Positions 49,456 through 52,069 of a stretch of 57,531 nt of DNA are shown here, in pieces. Location of the stretch: assembly GCA_964419835.1 (NCBI GenBank), contig CAYQPT010000001.1, positions 10,367 through 67,897 on the forward strand, given 5' to 3'. The position numbers and the translations under genes were made by a program. The notes beneath the pieces are model-generated. The model did no database searches, was not told the DNA's origin, and saw only the letters and a program-made list of their open reading frames with translations. Every line of letters begins with the position of its first letter. The first letter of the stretch is position 1. Origin of the DNA: an uncultured Candidatus Saccharibacteria bacterium. Lineage in GTDB: Bacteria; Patescibacteriota; UBA1384; XYA2-FULL-43-10; 1-14-0-10-43-13.

Positions 49456-50121
49456 GTGGAACAGACTACACCTCGTAGCGCAACAAGAGGACAACTCAGA
49501 GAACTGAAGAAGCAATTGTGTGAAGCAGTCGATGAGTTGGGACTGACCTTCGAGCAAGGCAAGGTCCTGCTCAGCAAGGGCGGTGCATTCAAGGGCAAGA
49601 TCAAGGACGACGCCAGACAGCTTCTGTCTTCAGATCTGCTTGAGTTCGTCGCGACAGCGACGCTCGACCCTATCGATCGCTTCTCGGTGGCAGAAGTCAT
49701 CAAGAACGGCAAGATTGGCGACGTTAAGTTCTGGTTCGGCAGCAACTTCCAGCGCGTTTTCGGCTCGCTGGAAGAGACGGACATTCCCGCCACGACGCTG
49801 AAGTTCCATCGGCTCAAGAATGGCTCGGTTGACGGTCCGATCCTGGAAGATCTCGGTGGCGCAAAGCAGATCAAGGCTTTCGTCGCCTACATCTTCTCGC
49901 TCTGCTGCCGCCAGGGACAGGGTCAGGAAGGCGTCTTGCTTACCAACGGGTATGCGAACATCTTCTACATCCCTGACCCCAACGATCCCGAGACTTACTG
50001 GGCGGTCAGCTGCAGCTGGAATTCCTCGTACGGCCGGTGGTACGTCGGAGCCGATCCGGTTACGTATCTGGACAAGTGGCGCGCTGGCCGCCAGGTCGTC
50101 TCCTGCGATTCTGGTTCTTAG
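49456..50121 (+). CDS. DGR variable (target) protein, C-terminal CLec/DUF1566-like variable region
   Basis: VR occupies the last 39 codons. The GTG at 49456 sits 8 nt after AGGAGG (the ORF-track start 49447 overlaps the RBS). Markedly GC-rich. Confidence 0.8.
   Translation: MEQTTPRSATRGQLRELKKQLCEAVDELGLTFEQGKVLLSKGGAFKGKIKDDARQLLSSDLLEFVATATLDPIDRFSVAEVIKNGKIGDVKFWFGSNFQRVFGSLEETDIPATTLKFHRLKNGSVDGPILEDLGGAKQIKAFVAYIFSLCCRQGQGQEGVLLTNGYANIFYIPDPNDPETYWAVSCSWNSSYGRWYVGADPVTYLDKWRAGRQVVSCDSGS
49995..50111 (+). repeat. DGR variable repeat (VR)
   Basis: 117 bp aligned to TR at constant offset 475. 15 of 16 mismatches fall at TR adenines. Confidence 0.9.
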
Positions 50122-50164
50122 TTACTCTGGTCTTTGACCTGAGAACTTTGAACCTTTGTCTCTT

Positions 50165-50179
50165 CCGCCCGAAGGGCGG
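50165..50179 (+). promoter_or_regulatory. GC hairpin downstream of VR (DGR target-recognition hairpin candidate)
   Basis: CCGCCC-GAA-GGGCGG. Confidence 0.5.
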
Positions 50180-50469
50180 TCGATATATCCCGGGGCTTCT
50201 CGATACTCTCAAAAAGAGTGTTGGGAAGTCCTTTTCTTTATGTTAAAATAGCAAAGGTATCGCGAAGTGCAACGGCTACGGCTTTTGCCCGCGATCCTTT
50301 GTCTTTATATTCCCTGAGTTGCTTCGGGTACGCCTTAAGTAAGAGTGGTTATAAAGATTAAAAACAATGAAATGAATCGGTGCTGACCGTTAAGAGACTT
50401 TGAGGTCTCAAATAAAATACAGCTCTAAGAGAGATCAAGGGGCAGTGATTATGGATGGCGGGCAGTACA

Positions 50470-50586
50470 TTACTGGGCGGTCAACTGCAACTGGAATTCC
50501 TCGAACGGCAAGTGGAACGTCGAAGCCAATCCGGTTACGAATCTGAACAAGTGGAACGCTGACAACCAGGTCGTCTCCTGCGACTC
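50470..50586 (+). repeat. DGR template repeat (TR)
   Basis: Rich in AAC/AAT codons. Encodes YWAVNCNWNSSNGKWNVEANPVTNLNKWNADNQVVSCD in the VR frame. Confidence 0.9.
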
Positions 50587-50986
50587 ATTTCTTTTCTTCC
50601 GTTTTTACGGAAGTTTTTGTTATGAGGCCTTTCCGCCAGCCGCCGATCATTCTGTCGATCTCTTCTATTTCCTGGCCCATGACAATAAATTGCTTGGATG
50701 GGATAAGCTTTAACTCCCAACTAAGCTGAATAAAAAATCTCAGTGAATCGACAGTTAATAAAGATTGTCCAAGTAGAGATATCTTTACCTCAATCGGTGA
50801 AAATGAGGCCTTTTGCAAAATATCTAATAGATCAGTGAATAGAAAATCGACTTTCTGGCCCAACCCAAAGCGTTCGCTTTTTGGCAAATTTCGTTCTATA
50901 ATAATCCAGCGCTTGTACGCGCTTTTTAGATGCTCAATAACAGGTGGGAAATTTGATTTAGTTTGTTGGTTAGGAATATTGCTCAT
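50585..50986 (-). CDS. avd: Avd-like four-helix-bundle accessory protein (opposite strand to TR and RT)
   Basis: 133 aa. ...LPKSERFGLGQKVD...SLLTVDSLR...L...EEIDRMIGGWRK pattern typical of Avd/23S-IVS proteins. Confidence 0.65.
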   Translation of the reverse strand: MSNIPNQQTKSNFPPVIEHLKSAYKRWIIIERNLPKSERFGLGQKVDFLFTDLLDILQKASFSPIEVKISLLGQSLLTVDSLRFFIQLSWELKLIPSKQFIVMGQEIEEIDRMIGGWRKGLITKTSVKTEEKK

Positions 50987-52069
50987 ATGTATGAAGAAAT
51001 CATATCAATTGATAATTTATTGATAGCTTGGCAAGAATTTATCGTGAACAAGAAGAAAAGAGCCGACATGCGGGTCTTTTCTAAAGATCTCTTATCAAAC
51101 ATTTTGTCGCTCCACGACGACCTTATTAACTTATCATACAAGCACTCGTCTTATCAACGGTTCAATATTAACGACCCGAAATCCAGAGTCATTCACAAAG
51201 CTATGGTCCGGGATAGATTGCTTCATCATGCGGTTTATCGGATTTTGTATCCCATATTTGACCGATCCTTCATCTTTGATTCGTATTCTTGCCGGTTTGA
51301 AAAGGGTACGCATAAAGCCGTCAGAAGATTAGAAAGTTTTACCCGTAAAGTAAGCCAAAATTACACCAAATCCTGTTATGCTTTGAAATGCGATGTGAAA
51401 AAGTTTTTTGATTCGGTTGATCATCATATTCTGCTGGAAATTCTGAAAAGAAAAATATCCGATGAAAATGTGCTATGGTTACTTCAGGAAATTATTGGAA
51501 GTTTTAATCGGTCAACAGATAATCAATTATCTCTCTTCGAAGGACTGGACGATTTGCGGAACGCAAATCGAGAGAGAGAGAGAGAGAGAGAGAGAGAGAG
51601 AGAGAGAGAGAGAGACGACAGCCTTCGGCTGTCTGGTAGAGGAATCCCTATCGGCAACCTTACAAGCCAATTATTCGCCAATGTTTATATGAATGAGTTT
51701 GACCAGTTCATTAAGCAGAAGTTAAAAATTAAATACTACCTGCGCTATTGTGATGACTTTATAATTTTATCTGACTCAAAGGAATATCTTGAAGGTTTAA
51801 TTGGCCAAATAGAGGATTTTTTAGGATCCCGACTAAAGCTGAAATTACATGAACACAAGGTCAGTATTCGAAAACTTAAACAAGGAATAGATCTCCTTGG
51901 CTATGTTGTATTACCATATCACACGGTTTTGAGAACCAAAACAAAAAGAAGAATGTTTAGAAAAGCTAACTCAATAAATATCACCTCATACACAGGACTA
52001 CTAGATCATTGCAATGCGTATAATTTAAAAAATATGCTTATTTGTGAAGTGCTGAGCCGCAAAGAATAG
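50987..52069 (+). CDS. DGR reverse transcriptase
   Basis: FFDSVDH, GIPIGNLTSQLFANVYMNEFD, YCDDFIIL (YxDD), GIDLLGYVV. ATG at 50987; the ORF-track TTG is at 50963. Confidence 0.85.
   Translation: MYEEIISIDNLLIAWQEFIVNKKKRADMRVFSKDLLSNILSLHDDLINLSYKHSSYQRFNINDPKSRVIHKAMVRDRLLHHAVYRILYPIFDRSFIFDSYSCRFEKGTHKAVRRLESFTRKVSQNYTKSCYALKCDVKKFFDSVDHHILLEILKRKISDENVLWLLQEIIGSFNRSTDNQLSLFEGLDDLRNANRERERERERERERERDDSLRLSGRGIPIGNLTSQLFANVYMNEFDQFIKQKLKIKYYLRYCDDFIILSDSKEYLEGLIGQIEDFLGSRLKLKLHEHKVSIRKLKQGIDLLGYVVLPYHTVLRTKTKRRMFRKANSINITSYTGLLDHCNAYNLKNMLICEVLSRKE
51570..51615 (+). repeat. (GA)23 dinucleotide microsatellite inside the RT ORF
   Basis: 46 nt of uninterrupted GA encoding (RE)n. Flanked by hairpins at 51551-51569 and 51617-51633. 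Confidence 0.95.

Follow-up and report, generated by a model that had tools for sequence, protein, structure and literature searches.

The stretch of DNA examined here (the window, 57,531 nucleotides of contig CAYQPT010000001.1 from an uncultured Candidatus Saccharibacteria bacterium) carries at positions 49279 to 52069 a cassette which, in our confident judgement, combines three things: a self-contained diversity-generating retroelement (DGR) of the Patescibacteria (candidate phyla radiation, CPR) clade, a GA tract that would switch its reverse transcriptase (RT), and an RT predicted to be tethered to the sliding clamp. Taken as a DGR alone, the cassette is ordinary for the CPR clade and its basic architecture shows nothing different; what it adds is a microsatellite embedded in the RT gene, a clamp-binding motif and an unannotated target scaffold. 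The microsatellite switch is well supported in relatives of the element and we infer it for the strain of the window. An earlier note on this DNA had described the element as a complete DGR, and this description is borne out by an adenine-biased repeat pair, a DGR-type RT, matches to Avd models, a variable repeat (VR) at the 3' end of an open reading frame (ORF) and a hairpin downstream of it. The parts of the DGR are the following.

49456 to 50121, plus strand: target gene, 221 amino acids, GTG start 9 nt after AGGAGG (gene-caller product P0001)
49995 to 50111, plus strand: VR, the last 39 codons of the target, from repeat search and base-by-base comparison
50091 to 50111, plus strand: 3' block of the VR resembling an initiation of mutagenic homing (IMH) site, G+C-rich, no adenine substitutions, one T/C difference at 50109
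50165 to 50179, plus strand: perfect hairpin CCGCCC-GAA-GGGCGG with a 6-bp stem, 54 nt 3' of the VR
50470 to 50586, plus strand: template repeat (TR), from the same search and comparison, 31 adenines, 18 variable codons
50596 to 50623, plus strand: hairpin CTTCCG-TTTTTA-CGGAAG with a T run, 10 nt after the TR, z -3.1
50585 to 50986, minus strand: avd accessory gene, 133 amino acids, its start codon abutting the RT start (CAT directly followed by ATG)
50987 to 52069, plus strand: DGR RT, 360 amino acids, in frame, PIGNLTSQ at residue 221 and YCDD at residue 254

A repeat search of the window returned a single direct repeat of 117 nt, 49995-50111 against 50470-50586, which is ungapped as the earlier note had aligned it and 86% identical; the two copies are 475 nt apart and the TR ends 400 nt before the RT gene. 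Base-by-base comparison recovered the 16 mismatches previously counted by hand, 15 of them at TR adenines, where the VR has G nine times, T three times and C three times. With adenines at 31 of the 117 TR positions, the hypergeometric probability of at least 15 of 16 mismatches falling on A is 1.3e-9. These changes lie at codon positions 1 and 2 of AAC, AAT, AAG, GAA and GAC codons. The sixteenth mismatch, C at 50584 in the TR and T at 50109 in the VR, is indeed situated three bases before the end of the homology, and the TR and VR peptides read exactly as the earlier note had written them. No further copy of the TR and no other VR is present within the 57.5-kb window. The perfect identity of VR and TR at non-adenine positions, this one 3'-end site excepted, suggests recent copying, and the block at 50091-50111 may, by analogy with the element BPP-1, serve in the way an IMH does. 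Ten of the 18 variable TR codons are AAY, and approximately 5e17 peptides are possible.

The RT sequence holds IGNLTSQLFANVY and the DGR motif PIGNLTSQLFAN, and its best solved relative among PDB sequences is the Bordetella phage bRT (8ub7, E 8.7e-43), while group II intron and retron RTs score far weaker; the adjoining RT with an IGNLTSQxFANxY-type motif that had been noted is an intact one of the DGR type. Between motifs A and B it possesses an insert of about 43 amino acids which is absent from bRT. The Avd-like neighbour is matched by three independent Avd models, from Pfam (PF22296, E 1.7e-8), NCBIfam (NF033474, E 4.8e-14) and PHROGs (phrog_3206, "Avd protein of DGR", E 1.2e-12), the first two scoring under their curated cut-offs, and the avd gene is divergent.

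As relatives we used 160 loci with the closest RTs, taken from genomes in GTDB and metagenomes of JGI. These RTs share 46-67% identity with that of the window, and the taxon labels of the loci are mostly Patescibacteria/CPR lineages, a few being other or unlabelled. Together with the window and L004, a locus from a Patescibacteria metagenome-assembled genome, 162 loci were scanned blindly for TR/VR pairs, and 102 of them were found to have an adenine-biased pair of their own. In most of these 102 the order of the cassette is the same, with the VR about 480 nt before the TR and the end of the TR about 420 nt before the RT, avd lying between them on the opposite strand. This places the RT of the window inside a clade of working DGRs. 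The "clade 2" CPR DGRs of Roux et al. 2021 have targets without recognisable domains (PMC8144416), and our cassette shares with them the RT clade, the host group and a small target that lacks a recognisable domain or membrane anchor. The cassette at 49279-51969 is 77% identical in DNA to that of L004 over approximately 2.7 kb, with unrelated flanks, namely CBASS (cyclic-oligonucleotide-based antiphage signalling system) genes in the window and type IV secretion genes with a relaxase in L004; other family members are placed among housekeeping genes. A shared cassette in unrelated flanks indicates that it moves as a unit and that its neighbours are uninformative on function.

The comparison with BPP-1 (mtd-VR, avd, TR, brt) shows both what is common and what differs. 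Both elements have adenine-specific differences between TR and VR. In both, the VR closes the target gene at its 3' end, an Avd protein accompanies an RT that has the (I/L)GxxxSQ motif, and a hairpin lies downstream of a G+C-rich 3' VR block. The gene order is different, being target with VR, TR, avd on the opposite strand and RT in the window. In the window a terminator-like hairpin comes 10 nt after the TR, whereas in BPP-1 a 140-nt spacer leads from the TR into the RT. The hairpin after the VR, which had been reported earlier, is present at a distance of 54 nt rather than adjacent, whereas in BPP-1 it comes directly after the IMH. BPP-1 is phage-borne and the element of the window is cellular, its target is not recognisably a C-type lectin (CLec) as that of BPP-1 is, and its RT has the insert of about 43 amino acids (QLSLF and (RE)n) that the BPP-1 bRT lacks. 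It is in this insert that the microsatellite and the clamp-binding motif are found.

51524 to 51538, plus strand: QLSLF codons (RT residues 180-184), 31 bases before the tract, matching the consensus QL[S/D]LF
51551 to 51569, plus strand: hairpin 1, GATTTGCG-GAA-CGCAAATC, perfect, abutting the GA tract
51570 to 51615, plus strand: perfect (GA)23 microsatellite read as (RE)n, 46 bases with 100% matches, inside the RT ORF
51617 to 51633, plus strand: hairpin 2, GACAGCC-TTC-GGCTGTC, perfect

The (GA)23 tract is the only dinucleotide run of five or more units in the window. In the allele present here the RT is in frame (ON); as computed, 21, 22, 24 or 25 units would bring a stop at residues 217-236, before motif B and the YCDD of residue 254, and 26 units would restore the frame. 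We surveyed 133 unique loci for dinucleotide tracts of at least 14 nt. Such tracts are present at the RT in 25 of them, in a total of 33 kb, against one tract in the remaining 804 kb, which is an enrichment of about 600-fold. Nine loci have a GA tract in the spacer between motifs A and B (the internal class), and in another 16 the tract (GA, GT or CT) is located 5' of the RT body, no more than 110 nt away. The canonical A-B spacer measures 111-117 nt, and spacers with a tract 150-228 nt. L004 has (GA)14.5 at the same place of the RT, which is there called as two ORFs. Tract lengths vary among related loci (21 nt in L011, 51 nt in L091), also between pairs with near-identical RT regions (L026 with 19 and L109 with 17 nt; L059 with 21 and L140 with 15 nt).

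The variation extends to the reading frame. Four clusters of RTs at 90% identity or more hold both full-length RTs and RTs that end just after the (ER)n run, and in three of the four the C-terminal remainder is called as a separate ORF. In the cluster of P0116 the in-frame alleles (ER)3E, (ER)4E and (ER)5E occur together with two alleles in the +1 and two in the +2 frame, and the cluster of P0065 likewise covers all three frames. The following alleles were found in the P0116 lineage.

(GA)10: RT OFF, four independent assemblies (two JGI, one ENA, one Logan)
(GA)14: RT ON, one assembly
(GA)15: RT OFF, one assembly
(GA)17: RT ON, one assembly

The flanks of these seven loci are 98.6-100% identical over 400-500 nt; the 60 nt 5' of the tract are identical in all seven, and on the 3' side L175 differs by one base. 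An assembly artefact was considered and rejected, the tract being present in independent assemblies and one OFF allele being identical in four samples. In ten loci of the 5' class a GA tract separates the RT body from a conserved leader ORF (M-R-x-N-x-H-P-x-Q-I-x-L-F-D). No stop interrupts the leader before the tract in any of the ten, eight have no in-frame ATG, GTG or TTG after it, and leader and RT are in frame in four loci, shifted by +1 in four and by +2 in two. The possibility that QIxLFD is a spurious translation of intergenic DNA was rejected on the grounds that the leader is open in 10/10 loci and its motif conserved at the protein level. Tracts of (GT)n or (CT)n, 15-38 nt long, lie 12-25 nt upstream of the RT start in L019, L026/L109, L059/L140, L074, L142 and L151; their position in a 5' untranslated region or promoter suggests that they may tune the RT at that level.

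Because near-identical lineages differ in repeat number and cover all three frames, the tract variation in the relatives bears the sequence signature of slipped-strand phase variation, i.e. of a contingency locus. As in simple sequence repeat contingency loci, for example the phase-variable mod methyltransferases of Haemophilus, Neisseria and Moraxella and the Helicobacter tracts (PMC4525171, PMC4081817), a perfect short tandem repeat lies in an ORF or beside a promoter. Also as in those loci, the repeat number varies between near-identical strains and alleles are found in all three frames. They differ in that the gene switched here is itself a mutator, the RT of a hypermutation cassette, and in that the hosts are environmental Patescibacteria and not host-adapted pathogens, the repeat being a dinucleotide unit flanked by hairpins.

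The second particular of the insert is the QLSLF sequence. The commonest clamp-binding motif of bacteria is QL[S/D]LF, more generally QxxLF, and QLSLF itself is the motif of PolC (PMC12309361). In the relatives the insert has QLSLF, QLDLF, QLQLF, QLNLF, QLGLF or QLALF, the leader has QIxLF, and a small class with 12 additional nt has QxTLF in the same RT loop. At the DNA level QxxLF is present in the insert or the N-terminal leader of 33 of the 133 unique loci, about a quarter; among 120 RT proteins it lies in the A-B spacer of 17, at the N-terminus of one and elsewhere in three. The motif is consistent with tethering of the RT to DnaN, by which the synthesis or the integration of the cDNA would become linked to replication forks. 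It is known that the RT of the group II intron RmInt1 binds DnaN (PMC6698660), and this RT, transposases of insertion sequences (PMC4549789) and TnsE of Tn7 are mobile-element proteins that bind the beta sliding clamp. The RT of the window resembles them in having a motif of the clamp-binding type, which may direct it to replication forks. The motif of RmInt1 is a diverged QMxxxxLxxLFL in RT2, unlike the canonical QLSLF in an inserted loop of the window RT. No paper linking DGRs to the sliding clamp was found in the searchable literature.

Several observations weigh against a working DGR with a switchable and clamp-coupled RT and have to be considered together. Two AAG codons of the TR can mutate to stop codons. 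No polymorphism of the VR was seen in the strain of the window, the VR being identical in the three other assemblies with the exact gene, all of them consensus sequences, and the only two differences of L002 from the window lie upstream of the target gene; because of this identity no current diversification is evident in the strain. The exact cassette is also carried by the read sets SRR8925824, SRR10769903 and SRR10769896. L004, the closest OFF relative, looks decayed, since besides its out-of-frame RT it has a 7-nt insertion in the VR (8093-8125) relative to its own TR, at a AACTGCAACTGG repeat, which frameshifts the last part of the target. For the tract, too, the strain of the window yielded no length variant; its short-read contigs end inside the tract, as do those of the L004 strain, which fits a long or heterogeneous repeat and proves nothing. 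The consensus assemblies of the internal class are in frame in 8 of 9 loci, and the tract could mainly be a tolerated low-complexity loop that occasionally breaks. Slippage does not require the two flanking hairpins, which point to some further role at the level of nucleic acid. Finally, QxxLF is lacking in 99 of the 120 RT proteins of the clade, which means that clamp binding is no general requirement.

Of the alternatives that such observations invite, the one that survives best, unlikely as we consider it, is that the DGR was silenced recently or is a fossil, its VR/TR differences recording past activity with no diversification at present. The VR identical in four assemblies of the strain is what it would predict, and decayed copies do exist in the family, namely targets without an RT (L167, L168) and L004 with both RT and VR frameshifted. 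However, all parts of the window cassette are intact, avd included, its RT is in frame with all catalytic motifs, the identity of VR and TR at non-adenine positions (100% bar the one near the 3' end) argues for recent copying, and consensus assemblies are unable to reveal minority variants. It is rather improbable, in our estimate, that the GA tract is a neutral, slippage-prone insert in a permissive loop of the RT and that the OFF alleles are broken genes headed for loss. The eight in-frame consensus sequences of the internal class would fit this, as would L007 and L008, which retain the insert and have lost the tract, and the palindromic inserts that fill the same loop in other loci; yet the tracts stay perfect, at up to 51 nt, across RTs that are only 50-67% identical, tracts of GA, GT and CT are found at three positions and always at the RT with the enrichment given above, a single lineage can have more than one repeat number for a given frame, four samples carry one and the same established OFF allele, and six of the ten alleles of the 5' class are out of frame.

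Comparably little credit can be given to the view that hairpin, (GA)n and hairpin are mainly an element at the nucleic-acid level (an RNA structure that controls translation or stability of the RT, a protein-binding site or triplex-forming DNA) and the length variation its by-product. It is favoured by hairpin 1, the stem of which survives compensatory changes in L010, L011 and L089; the stem versions GATTCGC/GCGAATC, GATTTTCG/CGAAAATC and GTTTCAG/CTGAAAC encode different residues. In addition, both the internal and the 5' class have an upstream CTCTCTT to which the beginning of the tract could pair, and relative to the ORF the module has two alternative positions. Against this, the whole module folds no better than shuffled sequences (z -1.9) and has no Rfam match, a scan of 49000-52300 giving two sub-threshold chance matches only, and being in frame, free of stops and coding for the conserved QxxLF it is evidently translated. 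A place of the module in the TR RNA or its spacer was likewise rejected: the TR is closed by its own terminator-like hairpin and T run after 10 nt, which leaves the module, about 1 kb downstream, outside that RNA. As for an ordinary duplication with an adenine bias by chance, nothing beyond the existence of the repeat favours it, and its likelihood is negligible, being refuted by the p value of the bias, the adjoining DGR-type RT and Avd and the same architecture in 102 related loci. In L046, L053, L097, L104 and L111 unrelated perfect palindromes of up to 18 bp are inserted at the same point of the A-B spacer and are translated in frame; hairpin-forming inserts seem to favour this loop of the RT.

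The target protein deserves separate attention. It was earlier described as a protein of about 221 residues with no obvious signal peptide, and with 221 amino acids, no hydrophobic N-terminus and no membrane segment it corresponds to that description. It has no match in Pfam, NCBIfam, PADLOC, PHROGs or PDB. A first search returned 39 homologs, all unnamed; in their alignment the core (LLTNGYANIFYI) is conserved, and the C-terminus is hypervariable except at fixed W, A, P, W and QVFS positions. In an exhaustive profile search the family grew to 3,880 clusters at 50% identity, 1,014 of them at E 1e-30 or below, and a single similarity group links 86 of 96 targets from related loci; the target is a member of a large unannotated family of Patescibacteria. 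Some relatives have tandem copies of the target domain, five in P0183 (926 amino acids) and two in P0184 (379 amino acids), and no Pfam domain was found in 15 relatives, fused forms and these multi-copy forms included. Copies of the family also occur among housekeeping genes without an RT nearby, at 7001-7468 of L167 and at 7001-7681 of L168; of these two loci one is without any DGR partner and the other has only an ORF of 69 amino acids at the place of avd.

The AlphaFold (AF2) models are confident. In that of the full-length target (pLDDT 87.6, pTM 0.74) the 60 N-terminal residues are helical, and the domain of residues 104-221, modelled separately (pLDDT 83, pTM 0.76), has the order strand, two helices, four strands. 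This order resembles that of C-type-lectin domains. The earlier note had expected a CLec fold at the C-terminus, and this was not recovered: Foldseek searches of the models against PDB, run with no positive control, gave best E values of 0.13 and 0.39 with TM at most 0.35 and no CLec entry among the 50 matches listed per search, nothing was found in BFVD, and the profile of the target gave 0 matches to PDB sequences at E up to 10. As far as these models go, the scaffold is apparently not a C-type lectin, although a very divergent CLec would be compatible with the order of strands and helices. The variable proteins Mtd, TvpA, AvpA and TaqVP, in contrast, have a detectable CLec fold. The target gene also differs in base composition from its cassette. 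It has 57% G+C and 70-71% G+C at third codon positions (49456-49994) against 39-40% at third positions of RT and avd (50585-52069) and 39.5% G+C of the whole window, and a comparison across 81 related loci gives a mean of 52% G+C for the 450 nt of target body that precede the VR and of 38.5% for the RT, the target being higher in 80 of the 81. Since A and T are both depleted in the target, adenine mutagenesis alone is insufficient to explain this excess.

Further candidate regulatory elements of the cassette are listed here.

49279 to 49307, plus strand: promoter-like site TTGACT-17-TATTAT with extended TG, 10/12 matches, left edge of the cassette
49334 to 49418, plus strand: 5' leader of the target, two successive hairpins, the first long (about 24 bp), minimum free energy -52.2 kcal/mol, z -7.5
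50192 to 50232, plus strand: terminator-like stem-loop with a T run after the target gene
50390 to 50418, plus strand: promoter-like site upstream of the TR, candidate start of the TR RNA, 9/12 matches, weak

The homology with the L004 cassette starts at 49279, exactly at the first promoter-like site, and the same leader architecture is found at 7425-7495 of L004 despite base changes (z -6.45). The hairpin at 50165-50179 is identical in L004 and L007, and strong hairpins of other sequence lie 45-70 nt 3' of the VR in many relatives. The hairpin and T run at 50596-50623 are likely the 3' end of the TR RNA; a hairpin and T run with differing stems follow the TR in 59 of 101 related loci. Because of this element directly 3' of the TR, the TR RNA is probably a short independent transcript.

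Put together, these parts permit a model of how the cassette may work, the first steps of which follow the analogy with BPP-1. A short TR RNA, starting near 50420 and ending about the hairpin with its T run at 50596-50623, would be copied by a complex of RT and Avd that misincorporates opposite adenines. The cDNA would then replace the VR, with the invariant G+C-rich block at the VR 3' end and the hairpin downstream as guides. Each replacement could rewrite up to the full set of 18 codons, giving access to the peptide diversity mentioned above. Slipped-strand mispairing at the GA tract would switch the mutator on and off in a heritable and reversible way, and QLSLF would tether the RT to DnaN.

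The genomic surroundings are diverse. Directly upstream of the cassette, at 45716-48893, there is a CBASS operon with three genes.

45716 to 47014: HNH-SAVED (Cap5-type) endonuclease effector
47007 to 48212: oligonucleotide cyclase
48213 to 48893: E2-only protein

An ORF of 107 amino acids at 48924-49247 gave no match. The target was considered as a member of the CBASS operon and rejected as such, the homology of the cassette to L004 beginning at 49279 and the cassettes of L004 and of other relatives lying among type IV secretion and housekeeping genes, respectively. Further upstream, the region 40727-45568 contains genes for tRNA-Arg and tRNA-Pro (40727-41022), then the RNase Y gene, a small helix-turn-helix protein and a nuclease-like protein of the phospholipase D family (44708-45568) with weak matches to MkoC and DrmC; together with CBASS and the DGR these genes look like a defence or variable island. 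On the other side of the cassette there is a MacB/FtsX-type ABC transporter pair at 52127-54035, downstream of which lies an ORF of 1033 amino acids on the minus strand (54045-57146) with repeated Ser/Thr-rich segments and one N-terminal hydrophobic stretch. Among the relatives, the cassettes of L004, L005, L169, L170 and L173 are situated inside conjugative-element gene sets (TrbC, type IV secretion pilin, PrgI, VirB4/TraG-type ATPases, relaxase, integrase), directly adjoining pilin genes, and two related cassettes lie directly 3' of a YceG gene.

In the searchable DGR literature neither microsatellites at the RT nor clamp-binding motifs nor the G+C excess of targets are mentioned, no account of the target scaffold was found, and nothing specific was found there that links DGRs to simple sequence repeats, phase variation, frameshift or the sliding clamp. 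To our knowledge, the control of DGR activity and the entry of the cDNA into the chromosome are the two main open questions on these elements. RT alleles that are naturally ON or OFF, shown in several lineages and samples, permit a direct test in existing metagenomes: if the switch is true, the diversity of the VR is expected to track the fraction of in-frame tracts. The canonical clamp motif in the RT offers a concrete hypothesis, integration coupled to replication, which is testable by mutation and for which a DnaN-binding group II intron RT is the precedent. The large target family, absent from Pfam and structurally unmatched, is relevant to the statement that all annotated DGR VRs are carried by a CLec fold. 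If only the basic reading holds, the window has one more CPR DGR, an ordinary one. Whether a mutable dinucleotide switch on a mutator, a clamp-coupled RT and a scaffold not recognisable as CLec together form an undescribed layer of DGR biology in a sizeable fraction of Patescibacteria DGRs is a question on which we find the scales evenly balanced.

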